This document shows positions 13,256 through 50,275 of a stretch of DNA of 64,000 nt, piece after piece. Under the pieces are notes generated by a model. That model saw only the letters and a list, made by a program, of their open reading frames with translations, made no database searches and was not told the DNA's origin. Position 1 is the first letter of the stretch, and each line of letters starts with the position of its first letter. This DNA is from Parcubacteria group bacterium (GTDB taxonomy: Bacteria > Patescibacteriota > Minisyncoccia > Moranbacterales > UBA2206), in the NCBI GenBank assembly GCA_041661275.1, contig JBAZUU010000004.1:71480-135479 (forward strand), in the 5' to 3' direction. Made by a program: the position numbers and the translations under genes.

Positions 13256-13444
13256 ATGACGGTTTGTCAGAAAAGAGGGGAAGGGACAGGGAGCGAGGGT
13301 GACTGCTTATGTATCAAGTGTGATAGTCACCTTGGTCCAATCCTGTGTGACAAGGGGAGTTGCGGGAAGTGCAGTGTTCACATCATAACCCATGATGAAT
13401 GCGTCATGGCAAGGAGCTCCTGCATTCCCAAGGATCAATACTAG
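13256..13444 (+). CDS. Small Cys-rich protein (62 aa, 11 Cys) in a GC-rich island
   Basis: Strong SD ggagggg 7 nt upstream. Cysteine pattern C-x13-CLC-x2-C-x8-C-x4-C-x2-C. Local GC is clearly above the flanks. Confidence 0.35.
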   Translation: MTVCQKRGEGTGSEGDCLCIKCDSHLGPILCDKGSCGKCSVHIITHDECVMARSSCIPKDQY

Positions 13445-13656
13445 GCGATGTCGTCAAAAAAGTCCCGGGCCAAGCCTCGGGACTAAAATTTATACAGTTG
13501 ACGAGTTTTCTATAGAGTGCTATGATGGTTAAAATATGAAAAGCTACAGGAAGCGAAAGAAATATCCACTAGCGATTAAAACAATTTTTATAGTTTTCCG
13601 ATAAAACCCCGAGAGGGGATTTTTTTTTCGTCCTTTTACAAAAAAAGGGAGGTTTT

Positions 13657-13869
13657 ATGAGAAGAAAGCATATAAGTAATGTCATTGAAAATGGTCACAG
13701 TACACGTTGCCTGATTTGCGGAAAAATAAAGCCGGCAATCATAGTTGAGGTTAGCCTGGAAGATGGAAAAGTGATAAATCTTTGCAATCTGGACGCGTGC
13801 AAAATTTGTTTTTGGAAAAGCTGTTTTTTGCGAAGTCAATTTTGTATCGGCCAGGGTATCAGTGATTAA
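13657..13869 (+). CDS. Small zinc-ribbon-like protein (70 aa)
   Basis: SD aagggagg upstream. Motifs CLICGK ... CNLDACKIC. Confidence 0.35.
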   Translation: MRRKHISNVIENGHSTRCLICGKIKPAIIVEVSLEDGKVINLCNLDACKICFWKSCFLRSQFCIGQGISD

Positions 13870-13917
13870 CCGCAACGCGGTTTGGGCGTATGATAGTCCA
13901 ACCTATCATATTGCCCT

Positions 13918-14925
13918 TTATTTTTTCAAAAATTTATTTATTTCCGATTCTGTCTTTTTATACTCGTCAATCCATTTTATACGCGTATCTTTTCTGAACC
14001 ACGTCATCTGCCGTTTGGCATAGTCTTTTTCAGCTCGGAGTATTTTTTGAAATAGTTCCTCCTTGGTTGCGATCTCACCTCTGAGATACTTAGGAATCAA
14101 AAAGTATCCAAGACCAAAGCTTTCTATTTTTTTCCAGGACAGTTTTTCTTTGGAATGTAAATTTTCCACTTCCCTTATCATTCCTTTCGCGAATCTTTTT
14201 CGAAGACGTTTTTCAATGTTTTGGTGGAGTTTTTCTTTGGGGAGATTGATGCCGATCTGGAGAAAGTTATAATTACGTGGTTTTAATTTAGAACCCTCTC
14301 CTGTCGCGAAGACGCGACATCCTCTCCCGAGGGGAGAGGAGGAATTTCTTCTTCCACCCTCTCCCTTCGGGAGAGGGTCATTCGACGAAGTCGAATGGGG
14401 AGAGGGAACCTTACCTAACGTCTTACAAATTTCTATGGCTCTTATTAACCGTACTTTGTTTTTGGCGTCAATACTTTTGGCTCGCTGGGGATCTAGTTTT
14501 TTTAGCATTGTGAATAATTTTTCCGCCGAATAATTACGTAAATAATTACGTAATTTCCAATCAGGTTTTACTTCCGGGTAGATTACATTATCAACAATGG
14601 CTTTTATCCAAAAGCCAGTGCCTCCACAGATAATGGGCAATTTCCCACGTTTCAGGATATCCTTAATAATCTTTTCGGCATCTTTTTTAAATTTAGCGGC
14701 GTTGTAATTTGTTCGCGGACTGACGATATCAATCATATAATGTTTAGCTAGCTTCTGTTCAGCTTTAGTAATCTTACCTGTTCCAATATCCAGTCCGCGA
14801 TAGATTTGTCTTGAGTCAGCGGAAATAATTTCACCGTTGAATTTTTTGGCAAGTCGAATTGCCACATCCGATTTTCCGGAAGATGTGGAGCCGAGGATGA
14901 CGATTATCTTATTATTTCCTTCCAT
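13918..14925 (-). CDS. miaA: tRNA dimethylallyltransferase MiaA carrying in-frame palindromic insertions
   Basis: IIVILGSTSSGKSDVAIRLAKKFNGEIISADSRQIY P-loop. ~38 aa (PSPHSTSSNDPLPKGEGGRRNSSSPLGRGCRVFATGEG) derive from the palindromic repeat at 14294-14406. Confidence 0.85.
   Translation of the reverse strand: MEGNNKIIVILGSTSSGKSDVAIRLAKKFNGEIISADSRQIYRGLDIGTGKITKAEQKLAKHYMIDIVSPRTNYNAAKFKKDAEKIIKDILKRGKLPIICGGTGFWIKAIVDNVIYPEVKPDWKLRNYLRNYSAEKLFTMLKKLDPQRAKSIDAKNKVRLIRAIEICKTLGKVPSPHSTSSNDPLPKGEGGRRNSSSPLGRGCRVFATGEGSKLKPRNYNFLQIGINLPKEKLHQNIEKRLRKRFAKGMIREVENLHSKEKLSWKKIESFGLGYFLIPKYLRGEIATKEELFQKILRAEKDYAKRQMTWFRKDTRIKWIDEYKKTESEINKFLKK
14294..14406. repeat. Family-B palindromic element (two tandem CCCTCTCC...GGGAGAGG hairpins) inside the miaA CDS
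   Basis: ccctctcctgtcgcgaagacgcgacatcctctcccgaggggagagg + ccaccctctcccttcgggagagggtcattcgacgaagtcgaatggggagaggg. Related copies at 24565-24625 and 54688-54739. Confidence 0.6.
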
Positions 14926-36075: not shown

Positions 36076-36948
36076 ATGAAAAAAAATAATAGGAAAATAA
36101 AAATACTCAAACTATCAGTGGCAGTTGTCATAATGTTTTCATATTTGTCATATCCTGCCCTGGCTAAAGAAATAAATATTGCTAATGTTTTAGAGTTGGT
36201 GAATGAAGCTCGACAAAAAAATGGCGTAGCCACCTTGGATGAAAATCAAAAATTGGACAAGATCGCGGCGGACAAATTGGAAGACATGGTGAAGAATAAT
36301 TATTTTGCCCACACGTCTCCCAAGGGAGTCAATCCGTGGTTCTGGTATGAAAAAAATAGTTATGACTATAAGTACGCGGGAGAAAATCTGGCTATCAATT
36401 TTATGCGCGCCGAAGATCAGCAGGACGCCTGGATGAAAAGTCCGACTCACCGAAAAAATATTTTGAATCCCAACTATCAGGAAATTGGAGTTGCGGTCGG
36501 AGCGGGGGAGGTCAATGGACAGTTGGGAATAATTGCCGTTCAGGAATTTGGAACCTTGGCCAGCGCCGCCGGAGACGTTTCAAAAGAAGGGGAAAACTTT
36601 TCCGCGCACAAGGATGAGGGATTGGTCAAGGACGGCGTGAAGATAACCCCGCAAGTTTTGTCGGTGAAAGACTTTACCGAAGAGAAATTGAAAAATGAAA
36701 TTCCAGGAACCAAAAGCAATTCCAGTTGGACGAGAAATATATTGGACAAGTTCAACGCCAATAGTCCTGCTATGTATAACTACATGAGCCTTCTCGCCGT
36801 CTTCTTAATGCTTGCTTCAATCGTTCTGGCCTCAGCTTCATTTCTCACAGTAGCCGCGCATGAGATTATGATTTGCGATGAGTTGCGTCGAAAAGTGTAT
36901 GCCGACCACGAAGTATTAATAAAACATGACCGGATTTTGATATCGTAG
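36076..36948 (+). CDS. CAP/SCP/PR-1-domain secreted protein with N-terminal signal/TM and C-terminal TM segment
   Basis: VNEARQKNGVATLDENQKLDKIAADKLEDMVKNNYFAHTSP...GENLAINF...WMKSPTHRKNILNPNYQEIGVAV matches PF00188. Confidence 0.75.
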   Translation: MKKNNRKIKILKLSVAVVIMFSYLSYPALAKEINIANVLELVNEARQKNGVATLDENQKLDKIAADKLEDMVKNNYFAHTSPKGVNPWFWYEKNSYDYKYAGENLAINFMRAEDQQDAWMKSPTHRKNILNPNYQEIGVAVGAGEVNGQLGIIAVQEFGTLASAAGDVSKEGENFSAHKDEGLVKDGVKITPQVLSVKDFTEEKLKNEIPGTKSNSSWTRNILDKFNANSPAMYNYMSLLAVFLMLASIVLASASFLTVAAHEIMICDELRRKVYADHEVLIKHDRILIS

Positions 36949-37283: not shown

Positions 37284-38075
37284 TCAGAGCGGCTCCAGCA
37301 TCTCCAATAATGCTTGGACTGCCGGTTCGTCCGAGCGCGGAAGGGCAAAGTATATCGCTTCGCCCTTGAATATTTTTACCGCGAGGGAATACGTTACTAC
37401 CTTTCCCTCAAGAAATTTTCTATCCTCCTTATCCCACTGGAGAGGGATAAAGCATTTTTTGATAACCGGGGATTTTTTGTTAAAGGTCCACAGTATCATA
37501 TCCCCAGTATCTTCAAAGAGAATAACTGCGCGTCTTTCGCGGTCGTCGTAGCTATCCTGTGTTTGAGCAAGAATCGGTGTCGCCAGGAAAAGAAAGCAGA
37601 TGAGAACAGTAAGTTTTGTTACAACCCTTTGCGAAAGTCGCAAGACGTTGCAATTCTCTTTTGCTTCCGCTTCCTCCAGAGTACGATTTTCCTCGTCCAT
37701 TTTTCGGCCGAAAGTTTCAAAGTCCTGGAGCTCGTAGATACCTACGGGATCACTTTCTTTTTTTCGGTTACTGAAATAGATCGAAAGGGAAATTGCGGTG
37801 AGAACCATCAGTGTGAGCAGGACATTTGGCAGTATGGATATTAGCTTATTCACTGCCAATTTTAATGCCAAACCGATAGGCTCGAAAGCGTTAATGAAAT
37901 CGCTGACGACCTGTTTTTCAACAGGCATTGTTGATATTTCAGTTCCTGTTGCATGAACCACCCATGGAAGAATTAAAAAAAGCAGGCCAACCAGTGTTAC
38001 AAAAATTATGATTTTCACCCAGTAGGGCACAAAATAACACTTAAGTTCTCCATTCTTGGAAATTAATGTGATCAT
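37284..38075 (-). CDS. Hypothetical membrane protein (263 aa, three or more TM segments)
   Basis: Clean ORF followed on the minus strand by an intrinsic terminator (ccccgttcgc ttcttg gcgaatgggg + U-run) that includes the G10 tract at 37271-37283. Confidence 0.5.
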   Translation of the reverse strand: MITLISKNGELKCYFVPYWVKIIIFVTLVGLLFLILPWVVHATGTEISTMPVEKQVVSDFINAFEPIGLALKLAVNKLISILPNVLLTLMVLTAISLSIYFSNRKKESDPVGIYELQDFETFGRKMDEENRTLEEAEAKENCNVLRLSQRVVTKLTVLICFLFLATPILAQTQDSYDDRERRAVILFEDTGDMILWTFNKKSPVIKKCFIPLQWDKEDRKFLEGKVVTYSLAVKIFKGEAIYFALPRSDEPAVQALLEMLEPL

Positions 38076-38357
38076 TTCATCCCTCCTTTTGATGAAAAGT
38101 AATGATTGGTTTCAAATAATTCATCCCACCCCTCTTTCAATCTTTTTTGCAAAAAAACTGAAAGAGAGGCAGGTTTTGAGTTGTTAACGAACCATGTTCT
38201 TAATATAACACATTAGCACAGTTTATGCTTCCAGTCAACAAGCAGATATAAAACTTGGATTAAACCACAAATCTTGGCTTTGTCTAGCCAAATTGCCAAT
38301 TTAGAGTTTTTTACTATTGTGTGCTATAATAATTAAATAATAAATAACAAATAAAAA

Positions 38358-39404
38358 ATGAAAAAAATCGTAGTGTCTGGTCTTGCTCTGGTGTTTCTTT
38401 TGGGCGCGTCGGGTGCGGCAGCGGGAGTAGAAAAAAATGGAATAGATTTTTCCAGGCCTATCAAAGTTGATGACCTGAAAATCGAAAAGAAGTTGATTCT
38501 TTCCAAAGAGCAACGAGCTTTAGGAGAAAAAGGTTCAAAAGGCAAGCCTACTCCACCGCCGGTGACAGTTGAAGGAGCGACCGGAGTTTTGGGAACGCCT
38601 CTGGCGCTGGGCGCCAAAAAATATGCCATTTTGGTCGGACTGAGCAATTATGCGGGAACCGCTAATGATTTATGCATCGATTCTCTAAAAACAACAGCCA
38701 ACTACCCAAATAGTTTATGCGCTGATGCCGATGCGGCTAATATGGAACTGACACTGAAAGATAAATATGGATATAATGATACAAATTCGACTATCTGGCG
38801 TTTCAGTGATGCTGATGCCAATTTTGCTGCGATCCAATCAGCCAAAGATTATATTTTAGCCAATGCCAAAGCTGGAGACGAAGTAGTTTTCTTTTTCAGC
38901 GGACATTCAGCCACTTCCAACAGAAATCTTTTCAAAAATGGCGACCGGTTGAATGTAGGTCTGGCTCTGTATAATCTGCCATATGATTCGCGAGAAGTCA
39001 TTTGGGACGGCTATCTCCAGAATTGGTTTGGCAGTTTAGCCACTAATCGCATTGTGTTTATTTTTGACACTTGCCATGCCGGTGGGCTGGCCAGTTATCT
39101 GCAAGGAACCGGTCGGGAAGTGGTGATGTCCAGCGCCGAAAATCAGTATTCCTATACATATTATTTGGGAGGGGAAAGCAATATGCTTGGAGAAGGATCG
39201 TTTGCTCACTTTTTTAACGTAGATGGGATGTATAATGGCTTGGCAGATGGTTATAACATGTTTGCGCCTAACGGAATTGACGGTAAAGTTGCGGTGGAAG
39301 AAGCCTATAGCTATGCTAAAAAATTCGTGCCCATCGATACTTCCAATCATCAGATTCCTGCGCTCAATGACAAGTTTACTGATGATTTAATGCTTGGTTA
39401 TTAA
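38358..39404 (+). CDS. Secreted caspase-family (peptidase C14, orthocaspase-like) protein
   Basis: Signal peptide. YAILVGLSNYAG ... GDEVVFFFSGHS (catalytic His) ... IVFIFDTCHAGG (catalytic Cys). Confidence 0.7.
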   Translation: MKKIVVSGLALVFLLGASGAAAGVEKNGIDFSRPIKVDDLKIEKKLILSKEQRALGEKGSKGKPTPPPVTVEGATGVLGTPLALGAKKYAILVGLSNYAGTANDLCIDSLKTTANYPNSLCADADAANMELTLKDKYGYNDTNSTIWRFSDADANFAAIQSAKDYILANAKAGDEVVFFFSGHSATSNRNLFKNGDRLNVGLALYNLPYDSREVIWDGYLQNWFGSLATNRIVFIFDTCHAGGLASYLQGTGREVVMSSAENQYSYTYYLGGESNMLGEGSFAHFFNVDGMYNGLADGYNMFAPNGIDGKVAVEEAYSYAKKFVPIDTSNHQIPALNDKFTDDLMLGY

Positions 39405-39515
39405 GAAAATAAAGTGGGAAGGGATAAAGGTCGAGGGTGTTAGTAACTGTTCAACATCTTTTCTTTGATATATACTTCTTTGCAGAGCTTTGTTAAAACA
39501 AAAAAACACAAAACT

Positions 39516-39851
39516 ATGCAAAGAAAAATGTATCCAAGCGATGTCACTCGCGAGCAATTTGAAAAAATCAGACCGATTCTCGATACGGCCTGCAAGAAAA
39601 CAAGGCCGAGAACCATCGACCAGTATGACGTGTTCTGCGCCCTGCTGTACCTGCTGAAATCCGGCTGCCAATGGCGAATGTTGCCATCGGATTTTCCCAA
39701 ATGGCGCACCGTCCATCATTACTTTTCTCTCTGGAGCCGGAAGGAAAACAAAAACACCCCCAGCGTATTGGAGGAGGTCTTAAAAAAAATTGGTCAGCGA
39801 CGAACGCTTGAGAAATGGGAGATTATGCAAAACGAGCTTGGGTATCGTTGA
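39516..39851 (+). CDS. IS5-family transposase OrfA (DUF4096 N-terminal domain)
   Basis: YDVFCALLYLLKSGCQWRMLPSDFPKWRTVHHYF is the hallmark of IS5/IS427 OrfA. Confidence 0.8.
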   Translation: MQRKMYPSDVTREQFEKIRPILDTACKKTRPRTIDQYDVFCALLYLLKSGCQWRMLPSDFPKWRTVHHYFSLWSRKENKNTPSVLEEVLKKIGQRRTLEKWEIMQNELGYR

Positions 39852-40311
39852 TGCCCAAAGCGTGAAAAATACTGAATCAGCGAGACAGAAAGGCTATGAC
39901 GCAGGCAAAAAAGTATCCGGTATTAAGCGGCATATTGTCGTGGACACCAATGGATTACCGCACGCAGTTACCATTACGACAGCTGATGTGACTGACAGAG
40001 ATGGAGCCATTAAGGCTTTTGAGACAAACAAAAAACACCTGTCGAAGGTGAAGAAAATACTGGCCGACGGCGGTTACACAGGCAAACCGTTTGCCGAAAA
40101 AGTGAAGAAGATTTTGAAAGCGGAAACAGAAATTGCTAAAAGAAATGAATTGCATACATTCAAAGTTATTCCGAAAAGATGGGTGGTGGAAAGAAGTTTC
40201 TCTTGGTTGGAAAAATGTCGGAGATTATGGAAAAATTGCGAAAGAAAACTTAATTCAAGTTTACAAATGATGGTTCTGTGTTTCGTGAGAGTTTTGTTGA
40301 AAAGATGTTGA
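39790..40311 (+). CDS. IS5-family transposase OrfB (DDE domain), expressed by programmed frameshift from OrfA
   Basis: GIVDAQSVKNTESA...GIKRHIVVDTNGLPHAV...ADGGYTG...VVERSFSWLEKCRRL is the DDE_Tnp_1 signature. Confidence 0.8.
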   Translation: MVSDERLRNGRLCKTSLGIVDAQSVKNTESARQKGYDAGKKVSGIKRHIVVDTNGLPHAVTITTADVTDRDGAIKAFETNKKHLSKVKKILADGGYTGKPFAEKVKKILKAETEIAKRNELHTFKVIPKRWVVERSFSWLEKCRRLWKNCERKLNSSLQMMVLCFVRVLLKRC

Positions 40312-40370
40312 ACAGTTACTTAGGCTACCCAAAATGCCTGAACTAATTAATAATTACTAGAATAATATAC

Positions 40371-40871
40371 ATGAAAAAAATACTTATTGGAGGAAGTCTT
40401 GGTATTTTCGCATTTTTTGCCTTCTTTGCAATGCCGGCTTTTGCGGCAGGCAGATTTGACCAATATGGCTATAATGATACTGCCAGAATTTTTAACGGCA
40501 CAGGAGAGTCCTGGTCTTTGGCAAAAGGATTGCCTGCTGATTATCTTGGAGCGTATGCCAAAGATAAACTAGTTATGAAATGGAACGCTGAATGGGATAG
40601 GGGAAATGCAGAGGGCTGGTCCAAGGGACCATACAATGCCTGGGAGAATAATGAATGGAATGGAAAAGTGAAAGGTGGTTCCGGCGCTGTTTGGCATTAT
40701 AAAATAGTCTGGGTCGGCGATTATGTTGCAAATCCAAGCCTGATACCTGATGGAGCATACGGAATATGGGGACAATTCGCGACTATTATGGATCAGGGGC
40801 ATGACCCAAGTTATGGGCCGGGACATTTTTGGTTCGCACATGCCAGTCCAACCGGGTACGGGGCTTACTAA
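40371..40871 (+). CDS. Secreted Trp/Gly-rich hypothetical protein (166 aa)
   Basis: Signal peptide MKKILIGGSLGIFAFFAFFAMPAFA. The upstream region is paralogous to that of 41398. Confidence 0.5.
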   Translation: MKKILIGGSLGIFAFFAFFAMPAFAAGRFDQYGYNDTARIFNGTGESWSLAKGLPADYLGAYAKDKLVMKWNAEWDRGNAEGWSKGPYNAWENNEWNGKVKGGSGAVWHYKIVWVGDYVANPSLIPDGAYGIWGQFATIMDQGHDPSYGPGHFWFAHASPTGYGAY

Positions 40872-41397
40872 GAGTCAGAAACTTTAAAAAACAACCCAGT
40901 ATTTTGAGGGGTTGTTTTTTTATGTCATAATATTTGGCTTTGTCAAGCCAAAATGTGGATAACTTTCCTTGCATTTTTTTTGCCGGCTGATAGAATAAAA
41001 AAGCAGATGAGGGAAAATAAAATATTTTTCAAAAAGGAAAAAAGATAAAAGGAGGGAAAAGGGGTTAAATCGTAAAATACAGTTGAATAATAGATATGGA
41101 TATATTCTTGATGAAAAGGATATTTTTATTTAAGAAGGCCAGCCGGCGTTCATTATTTGTTTAGTGAATAGCGGTTGGCTTTTTTTGTTGTTCTCTACGA
41201 ATTACGAATTTTAAAGAGCAAAATTTAATTCCTCCGATCGGAGGAGCCCAAAGAGGAGGAGGGTTTAAATTTTTTTAAAGCCAACCCCGGTTGAATAGTC
41301 CGCTTCGCGGAATTCAACGGGGCAAGTAATGGTCGAGGGTGTCAGGCCGCCCAGAGCGTCTGGAAATTAATTAGTAATTAACTAGAATAAATAAACT

Positions 41398-42000
41398 ATG
41401 AAAAAAATTATATTAAGCTTAGCGGCCATTGTTGCTGTCGGAGCTGTGGCAGGATATGGATCTTATGCTCTGTGGAGTGATACTGAAACCAGTACTGGAA
41501 ACAGTATTACAGCTGACAAGTTGGATTTGGTATTAGCAAGTGTCCCCCTGACTATTGCTAATGTTCATCCCGGGCAAACAGGAAGCAGTGCTGCTATGAC
41601 AGCTAAAAATGATAGCAATACTGTCAATGGAACCTTGACTTATACAGTCACTGGATTAGTTGATAATGAAAATGGTTGCGTGGAGCCAGAATCTAACCCA
41701 GCAGAAGGAAATGACCTTACTTGTGGTACGCCCGGAGCGGGGCTAGGAGAACTTTCGGGTCACGTAAAGGTAGGTTTTATTGCTGATTTAAACGGAGATG
41801 GCACATATGAAACTACTATTCCCGAGGCGTATCTGAATACTCTTAGCGGTACTACTACCATAGGAACTGTGGCCGCTGGCGTTACTGCCAGTGTTCAAAT
41901 GACATATACCGTAGATAATTCAGTTACTCCTTTTGCAGACAATATCTTTATGACTGACAGCTCTACATTTGATGTTAATTTCAACTTAACTCAGATATAG
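41398..42000 (+). CDS. TasA/camelysin-like protein with SipW-cognate class signal peptide
   Basis: N-terminus ...GYGSYALWSDTETSTGNSITADKLDL matches the TIGR04088 pattern (xYAxFSDxExSxxNxFxAxxLDL). ~200 aa. Immediately upstream of sipW. Confidence 0.6.
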   Translation: MKKIILSLAAIVAVGAVAGYGSYALWSDTETSTGNSITADKLDLVLASVPLTIANVHPGQTGSSAAMTAKNDSNTVNGTLTYTVTGLVDNENGCVEPESNPAEGNDLTCGTPGAGLGELSGHVKVGFIADLNGDGTYETTIPEAYLNTLSGTTTIGTVAAGVTASVQMTYTVDNSVTPFADNIFMTDSSTFDVNFNLTQI

Positions 42001-42097
42001 TCCTGGTTATTTTTGACGCGGGAAGATTTTCTCGCGTCTGCTTGGGAAACTCAATGACGACTGTGGGTCGGTTTGGGTTTTCAAAGCGGACTAAATT

Positions 42098-42625
42098 ATG
42101 AAAAAAGCGTACTATATCACCCAAAACATATTTGTCACTCTGGCCATTGCCATTGTCCTGTTTCTTTTGGCTGCCAGATTTTTGCCAAAATTCCATTACG
42201 GGCTATATATTATCCAGTCCGGATCGATGCAGCCGACTTTGAAAACAGGAAGTATCGTAGTCGACAAAAAGCAGGCGGATTATCAAAAAGGCGAAATCAT
42301 TACTTTTGCCCGAAGCAAAAAAGAGATCATCACCCACAGAATCACAGAAGTGACAGGCGAAGGAGAAAATATATTATACAAAACCAAGGGCGATGCCAAT
42401 AATACGGATGATTTGTTCCTGGCCAGGAAAAATTTGGTTTTGGGAAAAGTAATATTCGCGGTTCCGTATTTCGGATATATTATCGCTTTTGTCAAAACGA
42501 AAACAGGACTGGTTCTGCTAATTATCATTCCAGCCCTTTGGTTTATAGTAGAAGAGGCGTTGAAAGTCAAAAAAACAATCAGAGAGAAAAAAAATAAAAC
42601 TAAAGGTAATGAACAGGAGGAATAA
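42098..42625 (+). CDS. sipW: Signal peptidase I, SipW (archaeal/ER) type
   Basis: IQSGSMQPTL (catalytic Ser), ITHRITEV (catalytic His region), KTKGDANNTDD and the C-terminal TM helix are collinear with B. subtilis SipW. Confidence 0.75.
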   Translation: MKKAYYITQNIFVTLAIAIVLFLLAARFLPKFHYGLYIIQSGSMQPTLKTGSIVVDKKQADYQKGEIITFARSKKEIITHRITEVTGEGENILYKTKGDANNTDDLFLARKNLVLGKVIFAVPYFGYIIAFVKTKTGLVLLIIIPALWFIVEEALKVKKTIREKKNKTKGNEQEE

Positions 42626-44552
42626 AAAAAATAAATATGCGGAATTAATAACGGTTGTTTGCGCGATGTTGTTGGCTGTTGTTTCTCCTGTTTTTGTTTA
42701 TGCTGACTATCAGGATAACGAAACGACTAGTGGCAATTCTTTTTCCGCTTCCAGCTTGAATGCGGAAGTTTCTTCCACTCAATCGGGACTGGAAGTGGCT
42801 TTGACGGCTGCTGGAATGGTTCCGGGAGACAGCGTCAGCCGGGACGCCAATATTGATAATGTCGGAGGTGAAAATTTCAAATATAAAGTGGAATTTGAAA
42901 AAGTGAGCGGAAGCGACGCTCTTTGCGACGCGCTCCAACTGGAAGCAAAACAGGGCGGCGCGACGGTATATAATGACGATCTCCTTGATTTTACTGTGAG
43001 CGGCGGGACTTTGAATTCAGGAAATGATGACGATTGGGATTTTACTGTTACCTTGCCGACAGGGTCGCCCAATAGTTTGGAGGGATTGAGTTGCAATTTT
43101 AAGTTCGTCTTTACCGCCTGGCAGACAGATTTTGCGAATCCAACCGCGGGCTGGGTGGACGAAGAAGAACTCGATGGCAACAATATCACGACTGGTGATT
43201 GGGATCCGGTGATAACGGGCGTAGCAAATACTAATCCGCTGGATACCAAAGGCCAGACCAACGATGAGATGGCTAAAGTTAGTGTTTCCTGGAGCACCAG
43301 CGAAAACACCACTTCCAACGTGGTTTATGACACAGTCACTCGCGCGGATTGCACCGGATACGCGAACCATAATACTCCTGTTGACGCAGTGGCTGACAAT
43401 ACTAACCATGAAGTGACACTTAAAAATCTTTTGGCCGGCACTACATATCATTATCGCGCCGTGAGCCGCGACGTGGGCGGAAATCAGGTTTGCTCCAGTG
43501 AATATTCATTCACCATCCCTGCTTCCACGACAGATATTCCGTCATCAGACATAGTTCTCAATGAATTTGTGCCCCATCCTTCTGGTTCGGAAAGTGGCGA
43601 ATGGGTGGAATTATATAACAAAAGCGGATCGGATGTCGGAGTCAATGGCTGGTATATTTATGATTCTACGGATTCCGGTGGCGTAATGATAAGTTCGGCC
43701 AATACTGATACGGGCGGAACGACTGTTTCAGCCGGTGGTTATCTCGTTGTTTATCTCAATAAATCCTATCTTAATAATAGTGGTGGCGATACCGTGAAAC
43801 TGTATAGCGGCTTATTCGGTGTCGGAACATTGATTGACAGCCACAGCTATACCGGAACAATTCCCGAAGGCAAATCTTTTGCCAGGTTTCCTGATGGTGT
43901 CGGGGTTTGGATAGATCCGGATGTAACGCCTGGAGAAAAAAATGAATTGAAGCCGGAAGAAAAAGAGGCGTTTCTGACGCAAACAGCAAACGCTTGCTTT
44001 GACGGTAAAATGCGAAAAGAAAGCAAGGAAAATATCTGCCAGGGAGAATTTTTGAAATATCTGGGGATGGTAAACAAGAAAAAAGACATTGAAATGACCG
44101 ATGCAATGTGGGAAAAAATGAAAACCGTCAGCCCGGCAGTGGAAACAATGAAGGAAAAAGAAGCTACAGATGTGAAAACAGAACCCGCCTCGACTCGCGA
44201 AGACGCTACGTCGACGCGAGGCGGGAAAACAACGCCGGCAGGTGGAAAAGCGGATATAAAAAAAGAAGAGGTAGCCGCTCCCTTGGAAGAAAAGGATAAA
44301 AAAGTGGAAGATGCGCCTGCTGTTGAGGTTGCTCCGGCGCCGAAAGAGGAAATAAAACCGGAAGAAAAAACTATTCCGGAAGAAAAGAAAGTGGAAGTGA
44401 AGGAAGTGCCAAAGGAAGATCCTAAAGTCGAAGAAAAGCCTAAAGAAGAACCTAAAATCGAGGAAAAACCCAAAGAAGAAGCGCCAAAAGTGGACGCTGT
44501 TGTTTCGGAAGTTTTTGATTATTTTAAAATAAATTATATTAATTTATGTTAG
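42609..44552 (+). CDS. Large SipW-cognate-signal surface protein with Fn3-like and lamin-tail (LTD) domains and a K/E/P-rich repetitive tail
   Basis: N-terminus VYADYQDNETTSGNSFSASSLNAEV. Fn3-like block KVSVSWSTSENTTSNVVYDT...TTYHYRAVSRD. LTD block LNEFVPHPSGSESGEWVELYNKSGSDVGVNGWYIYD...GGYLVVY. Tail PKEEPKIEEKPKEE... Confidence 0.6.
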   Translation: MNRRNKKNKYAELITVVCAMLLAVVSPVFVYADYQDNETTSGNSFSASSLNAEVSSTQSGLEVALTAAGMVPGDSVSRDANIDNVGGENFKYKVEFEKVSGSDALCDALQLEAKQGGATVYNDDLLDFTVSGGTLNSGNDDDWDFTVTLPTGSPNSLEGLSCNFKFVFTAWQTDFANPTAGWVDEEELDGNNITTGDWDPVITGVANTNPLDTKGQTNDEMAKVSVSWSTSENTTSNVVYDTVTRADCTGYANHNTPVDAVADNTNHEVTLKNLLAGTTYHYRAVSRDVGGNQVCSSEYSFTIPASTTDIPSSDIVLNEFVPHPSGSESGEWVELYNKSGSDVGVNGWYIYDSTDSGGVMISSANTDTGGTTVSAGGYLVVYLNKSYLNNSGGDTVKLYSGLFGVGTLIDSHSYTGTIPEGKSFARFPDGVGVWIDPDVTPGEKNELKPEEKEAFLTQTANACFDGKMRKESKENICQGEFLKYLGMVNKKKDIEMTDAMWEKMKTVSPAVETMKEKEATDVKTEPASTREDATSTRGGKTTPAGGKADIKKEEVAAPLEEKDKKVEDAPAVEVAPAPKEEIKPEEKTIPEEKKVEVKEVPKEDPKVEEKPKEEPKIEEKPKEEAPKVDAVVSEVFDYFKINYINLC

Positions 44553-45448
44553 GTAGAAAAATAAAAATCATCACATACGCTTTTTTCTTCTCGATTCTTT
44601 TTGGCTTTGCAGGGGCGGCTCAAGCGGCGGTTTCTCTCGATGTCAGCGGAGTGCATGACCATATGTTCAGTGAAGACAATATATATCCGGGATGGACCGA
44701 TAGCCATACGGTGAATGTCAAGAATACCAGTGATGGTTCTGAAGTGATTGATGTTTACGCCACTTTTGATATTACTGATAATTCCGATCTAACCAAAAAA
44801 ATTCATTTGTATGTCATAAGAGAGGCTGACAATAAATATATGCTGGGCGGAGTCGGTGACAGAATAACTTTGGATGAAGCGGATGGTGACAGGATATTTA
44901 TCGATCGATTGGACGCGGGAGAATCGGAAGATTATAAAATAAAACTTCGTTTCGATTCTGACGCCGGCAATGAATATCAGGAGCTTAGTTCTGATTTTGA
45001 CATAGATTTAGGGTTTGAATCAGATGAAGTTCCGGGCGGAGGAACGCCCTTGCCAAAAGTTGTTTCTGGTGAGAAGCCCCCGGAAGAAGTGGCCGGAGTT
45101 TCTACGCCGGAAGAAGGCGCTGAAAATCAGGGGGCGCAATTGGGAGCAGAAACAACTTGTCAGAGCTGGCCGCAATGGATATGGATAGTCGCCATCTTGG
45201 CTTATGCCTTGATACTTCTGAAATACTTGCAGAATAATTATAAAGCCGAAAAAATGGTTTGGAAATTCGGTCTCGTCTGGACTGTTGCGGCTGTCACTTT
45301 CTGGTATTTTAGGGACAAATGTCGGGAATATCAGTGGTTTTTGTATGGTTCAATAATAATTGCTGTTGCTAGCTATTTTATTTATCTCTGGATGCTGAAA
45401 AAGAAAGTGAAAAGCGGAACTTTGCCGGTTGATCATACGCAGGAATAA
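44546..45448 (+). CDS. Secreted beta-rich protein with C-terminal triple-TM anchor (possible second TasA-like/anchor component)
   Basis: Signal peptide followed by a ~180-aa acidic beta-rich domain, then three TM helices. The start overlaps the end of the preceding gene. Confidence 0.45.
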   Translation: MLGRKIKIITYAFFFSILFGFAGAAQAAVSLDVSGVHDHMFSEDNIYPGWTDSHTVNVKNTSDGSEVIDVYATFDITDNSDLTKKIHLYVIREADNKYMLGGVGDRITLDEADGDRIFIDRLDAGESEDYKIKLRFDSDAGNEYQELSSDFDIDLGFESDEVPGGGTPLPKVVSGEKPPEEVAGVSTPEEGAENQGAQLGAETTCQSWPQWIWIVAILAYALILLKYLQNNYKAEKMVWKFGLVWTVAAVTFWYFRDKCREYQWFLYGSIIIAVASYFIYLWMLKKKVKSGTLPVDHTQE

Positions 45449-45548
45449 AGATTGACTTAAAACTGTATAAGGTATAAAATGCCAATCACTCGAGATTGGC
45501 ATTTTTGATTGGAGTGAACCGTTCTTTGAACACAAAGGGGATATAATC

Positions 45549-45908
45549 ATGAAAATTCTTGTGATCGATGATGAAGAAGGACTTAGTTTCATCATAAGTA
45601 AATTCCTAAAATCGAGGGGCTTTGAAACAGCCCTTGCTACTAATGGACAGGAGGGAATAAAAATCATCGGCTCTAGTGAGATCGACCTAGTGGTTTCCGA
45701 CATCAATATGCCGGGGAAAAGCGGGTTGGATGTATTGGAATACGTTCGGTCTAATCATCCAGGCATACCGGTCATCATGATGACCGGCGAAGCTACCAAA
45801 AAAGAAAGAGAAAGCGCCTTAGCGTTAGGTGCTTTCGGTATCATAAAGAAGCCATTTCTTTTGTCTGATCTTCTGGGCAAAATCAAGGAGGCGCTCGGAA
45901 AGGAGTGA
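45549..45908 (+). CDS. Stand-alone response-regulator receiver (CheY-like)
   Basis: MKILVIDDEEG...DLVVSDINMPGKSGLDVL...GAFGIIKKPF. The phospho-acceptor Asp and a Lys are present. Confidence 0.8.
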   Translation: MKILVIDDEEGLSFIISKFLKSRGFETALATNGQEGIKIIGSSEIDLVVSDINMPGKSGLDVLEYVRSNHPGIPVIMMTGEATKKERESALALGAFGIIKKPFLLSDLLGKIKEALGKE

Positions 45909-46200
45909 CTCTGTTTCTCTAACTGTAAACGCAAAGGAAAGGGAGATGAAAACAACGGGTAGCAGTGATAGTTGGAGCTGGGTATCATTTCTTGTGCTGG
46001 TTTCCCCACTGCTGGGATTCGGACTCTTTCTTCTTTGGGTTTTTGGATGCCATGGAGCGTCCAAAAAAGCCCAAAAAGAAAGGAGGAAAAAAAGTGTGGA
46101 ATACAAAAAGGCGTAGGCAAAAATGCCTGCCTAGAAAGGGAGAAAGATCGAAGGCTTTCCTCCCTTTTCTTTTTGCCTTTTTCTATTATAGAATTGATAT

Positions 46201-46923
46201 ATGGACTATAAATATAACGGCATAATTTTGTCCAAGATCGATATCGCGGAAGTTGATCGGATTTATAATATCTATACACTGGAAGCGGGAAAGATACGGG
46301 TGATTGGAAAGGGAACAAGAAATCCCAATGCTAAACTGGCGGGAAGTATTGAGCCGGTGACTAGCGCCGAAATATATGTTTCCCGTACAAAAGGTCTAGG
46401 GAAAATTACCGGAGCTATTGTCCTTGATAATTTTTCGCGCTTGAAATCCGATTATGAATATCTGAACAAGGTTTTCTATGTTTTTGGGATTTTAGAAAAA
46501 ATAATTACCAACGAAGAAAAAGACGAAAAAGTCTTCGCGCTTCTTTTGACTTATCTAAAAATACTGGAAGAACTGGCAGAAAAAGGCAAGGAAAAAGAGA
46601 AGATAGAGATTGTCACTCTCGGATTTATATTTAAACTGCTTGAAGCTGCCGGTTACGGGCTTAATATGGAAAACTGCGTCAGATGCGGAACCAGACTCAG
46701 ACCAGAAAACAACTTTTTCAGCGCGCCGTCCGGAGGAGTAGTTTGCTCCGGGTGTGCCGATTTTAGCGCGAAGAAAGTAAGAATTGAAAGCGCTACTATA
46801 AAATTGATCCGGATATTTTTGGGGAATAAGTTGGAAAATTTTGCCAAAATATCCGCTTCCAGAGCAGATATAAAAAATACGGAAGCGATAGCGGGGGAGA
46901 TGGTGAGGTGGATAGTGGGATAG
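46201..46923 (+). CDS. recO: DNA repair protein RecO
   Basis: N-terminal OB fold (GIILSKIDIAEVDRIYNIYT) and zinc finger CVRCG...CSGC. Confidence 0.8.
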   Translation: MDYKYNGIILSKIDIAEVDRIYNIYTLEAGKIRVIGKGTRNPNAKLAGSIEPVTSAEIYVSRTKGLGKITGAIVLDNFSRLKSDYEYLNKVFYVFGILEKIITNEEKDEKVFALLLTYLKILEELAEKGKEKEKIEIVTLGFIFKLLEAAGYGLNMENCVRCGTRLRPENNFFSAPSGGVVCSGCADFSAKKVRIESATIKLIRIFLGNKLENFAKISASRADIKNTEAIAGEMVRWIVG

Positions 46924-46942
46924 GAAATTTGAAATTTTTTAG

Positions 46943-47079
46943 CCGTCATCCTGAGCGAAGTCCAATTCTTATTGGACGTAGTCGAAGGATCTGCTTGCTA
47001 ATAGCACGAGTAGTATTAATTAGTAGATTCTTCGACTGCATTCTCCCGCTTCGCGGGATCATTCCGCTCAGAATGACGG
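46943..47079. repeat. Family-A MITE-like repeat, copy 4 (inverted orientation)
   Basis: ccgtcatcctgagcgaagtccaattcttattggacgtagtcgaaggatctgc...agattcttcgactgcattctcccgcttcgcgggatcattccgctcagaatgacgg. Confidence 0.7.
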
Positions 47080-47143
47080 ACGTCTCTGGTTTGATAAAAC
47101 ACTCAAAATCGTCTATTATAAAAGTACTTAATCAAATACAAAA

Positions 47144-49039
47144 ATGTCGCTATCTGATATCAAAAGAAAACTATATCAAAAAGAACAGGAAAAGAACCTG
47201 TCGGAACATGACAAAAGTTCTTACGACCCGCATCACGCAATTTCTGGGCAAACGCAGGATTCTTCCGGCGATCTTTGGGCAAAAAAAGAAATGGGACTTG
47301 GCGTCAAAGAAAAAGTGGCTATCAAAAAAGGCGCTTACGTTTTAGGCGGAATTCTGGCGGTTATTTTTATCATCATGATAGCCTATTTTATCCGGCTGTC
47401 TTCCTTTTCAGCCGATCGAGTGACGGTGTCGATAACCGGAGCGGATCGGACGGACAGCGGTAAATTTCTGACCTATGAGATCAGTTATAAAAATGATAAT
47501 CGGGCAGAATTGAAAAATGCCCAACTGAAAATTACTTATCCGGGAGATTTCAAGCCGGAAGACAATACCAATTTTGTCGAAGAAAGCCCGACCAATGGAA
47601 CATATTCTCTTGGCACAATTGCCGGTCACGGGACGGGAAAAGTAACTTTTAGCGGAAGAATCTATAGCCCAAAAGGCGCTCTGGTTTATCTGAAAGCCCA
47701 ATTGTTATATAACCCGGGAAGCTACAGTTTGCGTTATACCAGTGAAAAACAGTTGGGGATAAATGTTGTCACTTCACCGATAACTCTGGAAGTCGCAGGA
47801 CCACAAACTTTGGCCAGCGGAGACGAGATAGGCTATATGGTCAGTTTCAAAAACGATGGAGAAACGGATCTCAATGATATAAAAATAAAGATCGATTATC
47901 CTGGCAGATTCACTTTTTCCACATCTTCTCCGAAAAGTTTTGAAGGAAATAATATCTGGTATGTCGGATTGCTTTCTCCGGGTCAAACTGGAAAATTAAC
48001 GGTAATTGGAAAACTGGAAGGAAATACCGATGAAGTAAAGAGTCTTAAAGTGTACGTCGGTTCTACGGAAAAAGGGAGCTTTGTCAGTTTCAATGAAGGA
48101 AGCGCTGACACCAGAATTGTCGGCTCGGCCATTGCTATAACGCAGACAGTGAATGACCTGACCAGTCTCAATGCTAACGCGGGCGATCTTTTGCGCTTCG
48201 GCATAGATTATAAAAATACAAGTGAAATAGGGCTCAAAAATCTGATTCTGACAGACAGAATTGACAGTCCGGTTCTGGATTATAGCTCGCTTGAAGCAAG
48301 CGGCGGACATTTTGACGCCAATAGCAAAACTATTACCTGGAAAGCGTCTGATCATCCGGAACTGGCCGGGATCGAACCAGGCGCTGGCGGAAGAGTTGAG
48401 TTTACTGTGAAAGTAAAAGAATCTATTCCGGTGGCGAGTACGAACGATAAAAATTTTGTCATTTCCAGTATCGTGAAGATTGATAGTCCTGACATCCCCA
48501 CGTCTATTTCCACGAATAAAATTATCTCCGGAAATAAAATTGATGTGAAGCTTAATTCCAAGCTGTTTCTAGCTGTCAAAGGATTTCATAAAGACTCTAA
48601 TATTACTAACTCCGGGCCGGTTCCTCCTAAAGTAGGCCAGGAAACAACGTATGCCATCCATTGGATAGCGTCAAATATTAACAATGACGTGAATAACGCC
48701 AGGGTGGAAGCAGTATTGCCCACCTGGGCGACAGCGACAGGAATAGTATATCCGGAAGGCGCGAACATCACATATAACCAGCGAGACAATACTGTCGTTT
48801 GGGAAATAGGCAATATGAGCGCTGGAACTGGCGTGCTGTCAAGTCCCAAAGAAGTTTCTTTCCAGATAAAAATTATGCCTTCGCCCGACCAAAAGGATAA
48901 ATTGATAGACATTCTGAAACCATCAACTTTCAAAGCCAAGGATGCTTTTACGGGAGATGAAATTTCAGCGACGGCTGAAGGAAAAACAACCCATCTTGAG
49001 GAAGACAGTAGCTTGGATTCGAAAGAGAGGGTGGAGTAG
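47144..49039 (+). CDS. Membrane-anchored DUF11/CARDB-like repeat protein (631 aa)
   Basis: N-terminal TM segment. At least four ~110-aa repeats with the YxxSYKNDxxxxLxNxxLxxxYP pattern. Confidence 0.55.
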   Translation: MSLSDIKRKLYQKEQEKNLSEHDKSSYDPHHAISGQTQDSSGDLWAKKEMGLGVKEKVAIKKGAYVLGGILAVIFIIMIAYFIRLSSFSADRVTVSITGADRTDSGKFLTYEISYKNDNRAELKNAQLKITYPGDFKPEDNTNFVEESPTNGTYSLGTIAGHGTGKVTFSGRIYSPKGALVYLKAQLLYNPGSYSLRYTSEKQLGINVVTSPITLEVAGPQTLASGDEIGYMVSFKNDGETDLNDIKIKIDYPGRFTFSTSSPKSFEGNNIWYVGLLSPGQTGKLTVIGKLEGNTDEVKSLKVYVGSTEKGSFVSFNEGSADTRIVGSAIAITQTVNDLTSLNANAGDLLRFGIDYKNTSEIGLKNLILTDRIDSPVLDYSSLEASGGHFDANSKTITWKASDHPELAGIEPGAGGRVEFTVKVKESIPVASTNDKNFVISSIVKIDSPDIPTSISTNKIISGNKIDVKLNSKLFLAVKGFHKDSNITNSGPVPPKVGQETTYAIHWIASNINNDVNNARVEAVLPTWATATGIVYPEGANITYNQRDNTVVWEIGNMSAGTGVLSSPKEVSFQIKIMPSPDQKDKLIDILKPSTFKAKDAFTGDEISATAEGKTTHLEEDSSLDSKERVE

Positions 49040-49201
49040 GGGGTCGGGATAATTTTCATTTTACAAAAAATTAACTCGGGCTCTAAATTTTCTAGCTAAA
49101 ATTTTTGCTACGGTCAACGGCTGAAGCGCAAAAATTTTAGAGAAAATCTGAGCCCTCAAACAGGAATTTTTTATAAAATAAAAAATTATCCCTCTTGATA
49201 T

Positions 49202-50275
49202 ATGAAAGAAGATAAAAGAAAAAAAATAATAAAGACAATGCACGGCGAAATTCAGACGCCGTTTTTTATGCCGGACGCGACGCGCGGGTTTATGCGATCG
49301 ATGGATAAGAATGATCTGGAACAGATTGGTGTCGAGCCGATGGTGGTCAACACGTATCATCTATATCTCCAGCCGGGAATGGAAACTATAAAAAAAGCAA
49401 GCGGAATTCACAAATTTATGAACTGGCCGCATCCGTTGCTTTCTGATTCCGGAGGTTATCAGGTTTTTTCTCTTATTCATAAAAATCCCAAAATGGGGAA
49501 AATTACGGACAAGGAAGTTATTTTTCACTCACCCTTGGACGGTTCTATCCATAAAATTTCTCCAGAATATGCGATTCAAATCCAATTTGATCTCGGAGTG
49601 GATATGATGGTGGTTCTGGATGATCCCCCGCCGAACAGTTATCCGAAAGAAAAAATTGCCAAGGCGGTGGATCGAACAATCGCCTGGGCAAAACGGTGTA
49701 AAGTTGAATATGAAAAGCAACTAGAAAAACGTAAAATTAGTGAAAAAGACCGGCCGCTTATTTTTGGCGTGATCCAGGGCGGGGAGCATCTGGACTTGCG
49801 CAAATATTGTGCCGAAGAACTGGTAAAAATCGGATTTGACGGTTATGGTTTTGGCGCGCGGCATGTTGATTCTGATGGAAAATTTATGGAAGAAGTGGTT
49901 CGGGAAACCGCCAGCTTCATTCCGGAAGATTCCTTGCGGTTCGCGCTTGGCATCGGTACGCCGGAGGATATCATGAAATGCGTGGGATACGGCTGGGATA
50001 TGTTTGATTGTGTCATTCCAACGAGAGAAGGAAGACACGGGAGGCTTTTTATCAGTGACGGAAAAACCATAAATATTAATAACGGGAAATTTAAAGATGA
50101 TTTTTCTCCGGTTGACTCTAAGTGTGATTGTATGTTATGCCAGAACCATACACGCAGCTATCTCCGCCATATGTTCCAGATGAAAGAACCACTAGCGATG
50201 CGACTGGCATCGATTCACAATTTGAAATTTTATATGGATCTTATGGAAAAGATAAGAAGCGATGTGGATAAGTAG
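49202..50275 (+). CDS. tgt: Queuine tRNA-ribosyltransferase (tRNA-guanine transglycosylase)
   Basis: TPFFMPDATRGFM, VVNTYHLYLQPG, the catalytic region MMVVLDD, and the zinc site CDCMLCQNHTRSYLRH. Confidence 0.9.
   Translation: MKEDKRKKIIKTMHGEIQTPFFMPDATRGFMRSMDKNDLEQIGVEPMVVNTYHLYLQPGMETIKKASGIHKFMNWPHPLLSDSGGYQVFSLIHKNPKMGKITDKEVIFHSPLDGSIHKISPEYAIQIQFDLGVDMMVVLDDPPPNSYPKEKIAKAVDRTIAWAKRCKVEYEKQLEKRKISEKDRPLIFGVIQGGEHLDLRKYCAEELVKIGFDGYGFGARHVDSDGKFMEEVVRETASFIPEDSLRFALGIGTPEDIMKCVGYGWDMFDCVIPTREGRHGRLFISDGKTININNGKFKDDFSPVDSKCDCMLCQNHTRSYLRHMFQMKEPLAMRLASIHNLKFYMDLMEKIRSDVDK

Follow-up and report, generated by a model that had tools for sequence, protein, structure and literature searches.

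A conserved patescibacterial gene cassette that probably encodes a membrane-anchored surface pilus of the TasA superfamily

The window analyzed here, a 64,000-nt stretch of contig JBAZUU010000004.1 with a GC content of ~40%, comes from a reduced-genome Patescibacterium listed by NCBI as Parcubacteria group bacterium. On its forward strand, a four-gene cassette at 41398-45448 encodes a TasA-superfamily protein (P1, the putative major or shaft subunit; 41398..42000, 200 aa), a SipW-type signal peptidase I of the ER/archaeal, Ser-His type (42098..42625, 175 aa), a modular protein that is a candidate tip (P3; 42609..44552, 647 aa) and a predicted membrane-anchored, acceptor-only TasA-fold subunit of TafF-like architecture (P4; 44546..45448, 300 aa). 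Together, these genes probably specify a Sec-dependent surface pilus whose subunits are joined by donor-strand complementation (DSC). Profile comparisons of the sequences show paralogy among three TasA-fold units, namely, P1, the N-terminal module of P3 and the P4 beta-domain; P1 and P3 both carry a segment equivalent to the TasA donor strand, and P4 lacks this segment and ends in three transmembrane (TM) helices.

A first-pass annotation of this DNA had named five open reading frames, the four above and a stand-alone receiver gene at 45549..45908, and all five were found on the plus strand at the same coordinates. Its central proposal, a SipW-dependent fibre that includes a component anchored in the membrane and, as its second substrate, a modular protein resembling an adhesin, is supported by our analysis, except that the receiver does not appear to be a part of the system. 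It had also placed the locus in a reduced-genome organism, which agrees with the NCBI classification and with relatives that belong mainly to Ca. Moraniibacteriota. The peptidase gene overlaps the P3 gene by 17 nt and the P3 gene overlaps the P4 gene by 7 nt, an arrangement consistent with one operon. At NCBI, a protein identical to P1, from the metagenome-assembled genome (MAG) of a Parcubacteria group bacterium, bears the name "SipW-dependent-type signal peptide-containing protein", and the one identical to P4 is a "hypothetical protein".

Three TasA-fold paralogues and a SipW-type peptidase

The SipW-cognate motif YALWSDTETSTGNSITADKLDL that had been read at the N-terminus of the TasA-like protein is present in the P1 translation, and P1 passes the TIGR04088 model (27.4 bits against a cutoff of 19, aa 8-39). 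A single-sequence phmmer search of the PDB with P1 gave no match, and a family profile built from 23 homologues was needed to detect TasA (5OF1, E 8.6e-6; 8AUR, E 2.8e-5) and AbpX (E 2e-3). The alignment of this profile with TasA is full length (profile positions 32-205 against chain residues 5-204), with an identity of about 12-13%. The AlphaFold2 (AF2) model of P1 is a beta-sandwich with a mean predicted local distance difference test score (pLDDT) of 79.7. A comparison of such a model with TasA had been proposed as a check on the first-pass annotation; in Foldseek, the fibre and monomer forms of TasA (8AUR and 5OF1, probability 1.00 and TM-score ~0.5) and AbpA (7UEG, probability 0.98) come out as the best matches, and the P1 jelly-roll is thus superimposable on TasA/AbpA.

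Within P1, a signal peptide (aa 1-24) with a predicted SipW cleavage site at SYA↓LW, between A24 and L25, is followed by the donor-strand/SipW-cognate segment (aa 25-44) and by the jelly-roll body (aa ~48-199). The sequence SYA↓LWSDTETSTGNSITADKLDL of P1 aligns with TWA↓AFNDIKSKDATFASGTLDL of TasA, in which residues 28-38, the mature N-terminus made by SipW, form the donor strand (PMC9674648). Throughout the P1 family, alanine occupies position -1 and an aromatic residue (W or F) position +2 in 23/23 members, and D28, E30 and N35 are invariant. The invariant +2 aromatic matches the aromatic "clamp" reported for AbpX (bioRxiv 10.64898/2026.01.04.697558). In the AF2 monomer, residues 26-37 are the sole internal stretch with a pLDDT <50, that is, disordered. 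From this alignment and this model, we infer that P1 may polymerise by N-terminal donor-strand complementation. The family also has an acidic loop, ..ENGC.EPE....G.D.TC.., at 41665-41730 (aa ~90-111), in which E98 is invariant, D106 is nearly so and a cysteine pair occurs in most of the closer homologues; this loop may be disulfide-stapled or cation-binding, the latter idea deriving from the Ca2+ dependence reported for AbpX relatives.

The peptidase contains the catalytic SGSMQPT sequence on which its assignment to SipW had been based, and the assignment to that enzyme type is borne out: the protein scores 109.9 bits with TIGR02228 (cutoff 51.85) and 37.1 bits with the bacterial LepB-type model TIGR02227, below the cutoff of 47. 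Its closest relatives in the PDB are human SEC11A/C (E 2.7e-6), with which the segments SGSMQPT, ITHRI and KGDANNTDD align as SGSMEPA, IVHRV and KGDNNAVDD, respectively, covering the catalytic Ser, His and Asp. These Ser-His (not Ser-Lys) motifs are kept in six orthologues. Taken together, the TIGR02228 match, the SEC11A/C alignment and the failure with TIGR02227 indicate a peptidase of the ER/archaeal (SipW) type and not of the LepB type. With the Bacillus SipW equivalog model NF046067, the score is 129.2 bits and the cutoff of 190 is not reached; by sequence, the enzyme is therefore of the same type as Bacillus SipW and, by the NCBI criterion, not its orthologue. Hydropathy places one TM segment at each end of the protein (aa 11-29 and 137-155). 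The first-pass annotation had held that a LepB-type peptidase, together with a failure of both N-terminal motifs against TIGR04088, would dissolve the system; the peptidase is of the SipW/ER type and P1 passes that model.

P3 begins with a module (42609..43223, aa 1-205) that comprises a signal peptide, a donor-like motif and a jelly-roll resembling that of TasA, the last strand of which is FKFVFTAWQ. The signal YADYQDNETTSGNSFSASSL, previously described as related to that of P1, is present in the translation, and its predicted cleavage at VYA↓DY (A32/D33) would create a mature N-terminus, VYA↓DYQDNETTSGNSFSASSL, related to that of P1. The relatedness is upheld by hhalign, which aligns the P1 family with the first ~110 columns of the P3-family alignment at 97.7% (E 2e-12), although TIGR04088 is not reached; pairwise BLAST also aligns P3 aa 31-50 with P1 aa 23-44 (38% identity, E 2e-4). 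The relationship that we propose between P3 and P1 rests on these two comparisons and on the N-terminal TasA-like jelly-roll, which the first-pass annotation did not include. This module is conserved across 10 loci, and a homology search with aa 1-215 of the tip protein returned one weak match.

About eight residues past the last jelly-roll strand, P3 carries a second, internal donor-like motif, AGWVDEEELDGNNITTGDWDPV (43146..43211, aa ~180-201), which aligns gap-free with the P1 donor segment. The TasA-family hidden Markov model (HMM) correspondingly matches P3 twice, at aa 14-106 and aa 179-256. A motif HMM scores ~5 bits on AGWVDEEELDGNNITTGDWDPV, and at least 5 bits were obtained in 0.25% of shuffles. 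The site is kept in 10/10 jelly-roll-type tip proteins, in which the next domain varies (Fn3-like, LTD or other), and in the L005 orthologue TIGR04088 picks the internal motif, at a sub-threshold score. The motif was also considered as the first strand of the next domain; this was rejected because the next domain differs by locus and the motif is fixed.

The remainder of P3 consists of adhesin-like modules. The Fn3-like domain of the first-pass annotation is upheld as a fold (43269..43514, aa 221-302), with PF16656 Pur_ac_phosph_N at 35.7 bits (cutoff 30), but not as PF00041 fn3 itself (19.7 against 25). The lamin-tail domain claimed in the same protein, a candidate adhesive module, is well above its cutoff (PF00932 LTD, 53.1 bits against 34.3; 43539..43853, aa 311-415), and LTD also occurs in the tip proteins of L001, L005, L006, L008 and L022; in L014, L016 and L018, an LTD-like sequence is visible by eye directly after the N-module. 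The tail (44169..44498, aa 521-630) is a low-complexity region composed to 62% of K/E/D/P; it had been called a PKEE-repeat tail, of which the charged low-complexity character stands, but the tandem repeat amounts to only 2.4 copies of a 10-aa unit (44408-44480). A comparable charged tail ends nearly all middle/tip proteins of the other loci. With 647 aa, P3 does not merit the term "giant" that it had been given.

P4 starts with an ordinary Sec signal peptide (AQA↓AV) and continues with a beta-domain that lacks a donor strand (aa ~28-161, AF2 pLDDT ~75-83), a linker that is disordered in the AF2 model (aa 165-204) and three TM helices (aa 210-231, 238-256 and 263-289). The earlier description of a beta-rich protein with a triple-TM anchor thus agrees with both the AF2 model and hydropathy, which place the three helices at the C-terminus. 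By hhalign, the P1 family and the P4 beta-domain family align at 94.2% (E 1.2e-7) across P1 columns 51-209 only, that is, the jelly-roll body. In P4 and its orthologues, an (I)DVE-type strand begins no more than a few residues past the signal peptide, and the N-terminus lacks a donor motif. A TasA-fold body without a donor strand suggests that P4 is likely to be an acceptor-only base subunit. Foldseek with the P4 beta-domain retrieves the DSC pilins FimG, CupB6, AbpA, PapA and CfaB. Two cysteines, C205 and C259, are conserved and both are predicted to face outward, which fits an N-out topology with a possible disulfide. P4 was also considered as a DUF5305/TafG-like peptidase accessory and rejected, as there is no such Pfam/NCBIfam match.

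A word-indexed search found only 11 relatives of P4, but an exhaustive profile search brought the number of cluster representatives to 1,870 at E<=1e-3 (497 at E<=1e-10); no Pfam or NCBIfam model covers this family. The 3-TM module, recognizable by C..WP.W.W, three TM helices and a second conserved Cys in an outer loop, also occurs alone at the C-terminus of 1,200-1,900-aa proteins, including those at L020 245-4519 and L024 1976-7705 and in P0113, P0121, P0132 and others. It looks like a portable membrane-anchoring module of giant multi-domain proteins, itself without a Pfam or NCBIfam model.

Recurrence of the cassette and comparison with known fibres

Related loci were surveyed through the genomic contexts of P1 homologues, a scan of GTDB with the anchor profile and an HMM census. 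A comparison of gene order across related genomes had been suggested earlier, and in this survey the four-gene order recurs in about 16 loci beyond the window. The order of shaft, signal peptidase, middle/tip protein and anchor is found in the window and in L001, L003, L005, L006, L008, L009, L010, L012-L018 and L022; L023 is a minimal, reordered cassette. Among most loci the flanking regions are unrelated. Almost all host genomes are labelled Patescibacteria or Candidatus Moraniibacteriota, the others being two MAGs labelled Bdellovibrionales and one labelled Saccharibacteria. The middle proteins are of two types, one with the jelly-roll N-module and one with a TapA-like layout, in which the donor-like motif leads straight into other domains (L009, L010, L015 and L017).

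Several of these loci have features of their own. In L005, a RelB/ParE toxin-antitoxin pair lies between the tip and anchor genes (11767-12313), and a GGDEF diguanylate cyclase gene follows the anchor (13372-14277), which hints at cyclic di-GMP (c-di-GMP) control in some lineages. The more distant L007 (8001-16768) brings together a sortase, a SipW-type peptidase, two TasA-like genes, a VWA/SdrD-like protein of 1,043 aa and a CLIPPER/DUF11 protein, the N-terminus of which is recognized by the tip N-module HMM (E 2e-25); this locus is a cell-wall-anchored version of the same idea.

The window system shares with the tapA-sipW-tasA operon of B. subtilis (5OF1, 8AUR) a TasA-fold major subunit with a donor-equivalent segment right after the cleavage site, an ER/archaeal-type signal peptidase encoded in the operon and a second substrate with a related donor-like motif, as in TapA. 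The two differ in gene order (shaft, peptidase, tip and anchor versus tapA-sipW-tasA), in the peptidase, which at 129 bits lies under the SipW equivalog cutoff of 190, and in the accessory protein, which in the window is a jelly-roll with Fn3-like, LTD and charged-tail regions and not TapA. In addition, P1 stops at its last strand, without the C-terminal tail of TasA, and Bacillus lacks the fourth, membrane-integral TasA-fold protein found here.

An architectural parallel exists with the haloarchaeal Tafi pilus, for which an order of TafC (tip), TafE (adapter), TafA (core) and TafF (anchor) has been proposed from AlphaFold. TafF combines a Sec signal and a pilin-like N-domain with a C-terminal set of three TM helices, and in the AlphaFold prediction it receives the donor strand of TafA (PMC11821415, PMC12337348). 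P4 has the same makeup, namely, a Sec signal, a donor-less pilin-like N-domain and three C-terminal TM helices; this likeness is architectural only and is set by the description of TafF. The Tafi and window systems thus have the same parts in the same proposed order: a tip with a pilin-like N-domain and an adhesin domain, a shaft, a 3-TM acceptor anchor and a dedicated signal peptidase I. The window host is bacterial, however, and all substrates are Sec-like, with no twin-arginine motifs; a DUF5305 (TafG) accessory, a TafB-type regulator and a separate adapter pilin are lacking; the peptidase has two TM segments instead of the four of TafD; and the tip domains are LTD/Fn3 instead of laminin-G-like.

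The AbpX/AbpA loci of archaea and Bacillota/Chloroflexota combine a major subunit, a TIGR02228-type signal peptidase I, minor/tip subunits and anchors, often with two-component or c-di-GMP regulators (PMC9245690; bioRxiv 10.64898/2026.01.04.697558). They belong to the same TasA superfamily, to which the P1 profile (AbpX, E 2e-3) and the P1 model (AbpA, 0.98) also point, but the bacterial AbpX loci have SLH or LPXTG cell-wall anchors and a 10-TM signal peptidase, whereas the window has a 3-TM anchor and a 2-TM enzyme. Chaperone-usher type 1 and P pili (FimA/FimG/FimH, PapA) share the logic of donor-strand complementation and a specialised tip adhesin, and the Foldseek matches of the P4 beta-domain include FimG, CupB6, PapA and CfaB. 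In contrast to these pili, the window system has no chaperone, usher or outer membrane, its proteins are evolutionarily unrelated and its polarity is opposite: the donor-less subunit lies at the membrane base here and at the tip there. The window system is a bacterial counterpart of the Bacillus and archaeal fibres, not a new kind of machine.

Proposed assembly and alternative explanations

The proposed pilus would assemble as follows. SipW would cleave P1 (SYA↓LW) and P3 (VYA↓DY), so that each mature protein would begin with an exposed strand carrying an aromatic residue at +2, and P1 would polymerise head-to-tail, the N-terminal strand of each subunit entering the groove of the next. The strand of the cell-proximal P1 would enter the acceptor-only domain of P4, which would be held in the membrane by the 3-TM module and spaced off by the linker of ~40 residues. 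At the other end, the N-terminal strand of P3 would fill the groove left open on the most distal P1, so that the Fn3-like, LTD and charged-tail modules would come to lie at the tip as the adhesive end. With arrows pointing from each donor to the subunit that receives its strand, the order would be P3 -> P1 -> ... -> P1 -> P4 (membrane). In an ultrasmall, probably episymbiotic bacterium, such a fibre could attach the cell to a host cell, to a surface or to its sister cells, and a thin surface fibre is plausible as an attachment device.

The internal motif of P3 permits an extension of this model. In the BIDG sheet of AbpA, the last jelly-roll strand is the partner of the donor strand (PMC9245690), and a hairpin past the last strand of P3 could thus fill the groove in cis. 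We speculate, with considerable doubt, that the internal segment of P3 folds back into its own groove and makes P3 a self-complemented cap and initiator. If this were true, the N-terminal strand of P3 would always be free to start a fibre and nothing would add beyond it; combined with a donor-less subunit on a 3-TM module, a cis-cap would, without any chaperone, define the two ends of a DSC pilus as well as its polarity. Our literature search found no report of such a mechanism in the TasA superfamily.

Several observations speak against the proposed pilus. Polymerisation, polarity and the roles of tip and anchor are derived from homology and architecture, no filament has been seen, and the host cell is a putative ligand only; the tip and anchor roles in Tafi are themselves unproven hypotheses (PMC11821415). 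TIGR04088 gives no match to P3 at E<=1, and among nine P3 orthologues it scores 13.8-14.3 bits in three and does not match the other six. As P3 has a full jelly-roll with a groove of its own, it need not be strictly terminal. P1 scores 19.4 bits with Pfam PF12389, slightly under the gathering score of 22.5, over aa 9-63 only; PF12389 is present in many P1 homologues at 28-46% identity.

It is also possible, although rather unlikely, that the locus specifies a free matrix scaffold as in Bacillus biofilms, with P1 forming free fibres and P3, as a nucleator or chaperone similar to TapA, providing no more than the first donor strand; P4 would then stand outside the fibre, in the membrane, as an assembly factor or peptidase accessory to which subunits bind transiently. 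TapA does nucleate TasA by N-terminal strand donation (PMC9674648; see also PMC10151520), P3 has the N-terminal segment resembling the donor strand of the major subunit that is expected of such a nucleator, and the middle protein of L009, L010, L015 and L017 has a donor-like motif without a jelly-roll, as in the TapA layout. The Tafi and AbpX loci moreover contain signal peptidase accessories (DUF5305/TafG) composed of an extracellular beta-sandwich and TM helices. No TapA-named family is found among the Pfam/NCBIfam matches of P3, which was not compared directly with TapA.

Less likely still is the idea that P1, P3 and P4 are monomeric envelope or adhesin proteins that do not polymerise and merely share SipW-dependent export, the TasA fold serving as a stable beta-sandwich scaffold. 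TIGR04088 describes a signal-peptide class and is silent on polymerisation, the TasA monomer is stable and self-complemented (PMC9674648), and no fibre observed for any patescibacterial homologue was found in our literature search. Such an arrangement would, however, leave the trio of a small donor-bearing protein, a modular donor-bearing protein and a donor-less anchored protein hard to explain without strand exchange; furthermore, the residues of P1 that correspond to the donor strand of TasA, among them the +2 aromatic, are invariant within its family, and this segment is unpacked in the monomer model. The family name of the weak Pfam match, "Camelysin metallo-endopeptidase" (PF12389), raises the further idea that P1 is a secreted metalloprotease of the camelysin type (Peptidase_M73) and that the locus pairs a protease with its processing peptidase. 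We consider this highly improbable: the sub-threshold match is confined to the signal and donor region, no His is found among the invariant columns of the P1-family alignment (a statement on the columns, with no active-site analysis) and published work describes TasA as a fibre-forming jelly-roll protein (PMC9674648, PMC9245690). The Sec-dependent DSC pilus anchored by P4 remains our preferred explanation of the locus.

Flanking genes and significance for Patescibacteria

The receiver encoded after P4 is indeed a stand-alone CheY-like protein, as first annotated (119 aa; PF00072, 98.6 bits, covering aa 3-112, with no output domain), but it is not a conserved member of the cassette. Its gene begins 100 nt past that of P4 and has a promoter-like site of its own at 45452-45480. 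A homologue sits behind the anchor gene in L009, L010, L015, L020 and L022, and at a greater distance downstream in L011. In L001, L003, L005, L006, L008, L012-L014, L016-L018, L023 and L024, no homologue was detected; of these, the sequences of L001 and L012 stop at the anchor gene or shortly beyond it. The receiver is followed, as in the window, by recO and the gene of a DUF11 protein in L009, L011, L015 and L020, and L022 adds tRNA-guanine transglycosylase (TGT); no recO, DUF11 or TGT homologues were found in L010. We rejected the receiver as a core component, as it accompanies the cassette only in a related subset that has also inherited recO, DUF11 and TGT synteny. We regard it as a neighbour passed on by common descent that may have a regulatory role.

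The downstream block at 46201-50275 encodes RecO, a 631-aa DUF11/CLIPPER surface protein with an N-terminal TM segment and TGT. The block is kept in L009, L011, L015, L020, L022 and L024, with TGT seen in L022 and L024, and the DUF11 protein is strongly conserved (E ~1e-200). This protein (47144-49039) was also considered as a part of the fibre and rejected, as neither the TasA HMM nor those of the tip and anchor recognized it. In L024, the place of the TasA cassette is taken by a beta-helix adhesin of 1,909 aa that ends in the same 3-TM module, which suggests that this position is a variable slot for surface proteins.

On the 5' side, three loci carry a gene for a secreted CAP/SCP protein (PF00188; window 36076-36948, L001 6675-7466 and L008 1134-1934), which could be a member of an extended surface locus. 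A secreted caspase-like protein of 348 aa (38358-39404; Peptidase_C14, 31.8 bits) has a homologue (E 2e-63) just upstream of the L017 cassette (1-1200), the association being limited to these two loci. An IS4/IS5-family transposase at 39465-40311 occupies two overlapping ORFs, DUF4096 (39465-39851) and DDE_Tnp_1 (39790-40311), which were probably split by a frameshift. It lies inside an insert of ~4.4 kb that separates the CAP gene from the cassette; L001, which is otherwise syntenic (ArgRS, GT4, IleRS, CAP and cassette), lacks this insert. Directly upstream of the cassette, 40371-40871 encodes a secreted 166-aa protein rich in G, W and Y, with no Pfam/NCBIfam family and no homologue among the loci compared; 3' of its gene, a hairpin followed by a T-run looks terminator-like by eye and was not listed by the automated scan.

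Between this gene and P1, the box ATGGTCGAGGGTGTCAGGC (41329..41347, plus strand) lies about 50-70 nt 5' of the P1 start codon and occurs once in the window. Its 13-nt core is found at the equivalent position in L001 (7941-7953) and L022 (123-135) only, which are the closest loci; the consensus across the window, L001 and L022 is ATGGTCGAG(G/A)GTG-TCAGGC. This box may be a promoter or operator element. The P1 ATG has no obvious Shine-Dalgarno-like sequence, and a -10-like TAGAAT ends 10 nt upstream of it, so the P1 mRNA may be nearly leaderless. Across all loci checked, the shaft genes have long leaders of roughly 200-530 nt. For a leader RNA or riboswitch 5' of P1, an Rfam scan (E<=1, 38000-47500) produced spurious miRNA/RNAI-type matches only, and the folding of the GC-rich P1 leader is only marginally above that of shuffles (z -1.96). 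In the 97-nt gap between the shaft and peptidase genes (42001-42097), a weak terminator-like hairpin at 42058-42070 could, through partial termination, lift the expression of the shaft subunit over that of the downstream genes.

The first-pass annotation had regarded such a system as uncharacterised in these lineages. This holds experimentally, but TasA homologues in Patescibacteria had already been noted, as PF12389 homologues, in one sentence of Wang et al. 2022 (PMC9245690). The model of a tip, a shaft and an anchor with a dedicated signal peptidase has likewise been published, for Tafi (PMC11821415, PMC12337348) and for AbpX (bioRxiv 10.64898/2026.01.04.697558); the word Patescibacteria does not occur in the text of the latter. 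Our literature search found no paper treating such a system in the candidate phyla radiation. New in this analysis are the recognition of a conserved cassette in Patescibacteria, the assignment of a previously unannotated family as its anchor, the 3-TM module as a portable element and the donor-like motif inside the tip protein.

The studies of attachment in Patescibacteria that we found concern, by their titles, type IV pili, and the cassette is a candidate for a second, structurally different fibre, mainly in Moranbacteria/Parcubacteria. To our knowledge, there is no cultured model of Moranbacteria/Parcubacteria. The analysis leads to testable predictions, namely, the SipW cleavage sites, the docking of the P1 strand into P4 and the cis-capping of the tip. 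If the cis-capping of P3 were true, it would point to a Patescibacteria-wide, membrane-anchored attachment organelle distinct from type IV pili. An unannotated anchor family of 1,870 cluster representatives (E<=1e-3) gains a candidate role as the membrane base of a TasA-type pilus, and the tip-shaft-anchor architecture of the archaeal Tafi is extended to bacteria in a Sec-dependent version, which supports the view that DSC fibres are an old solution across domains.

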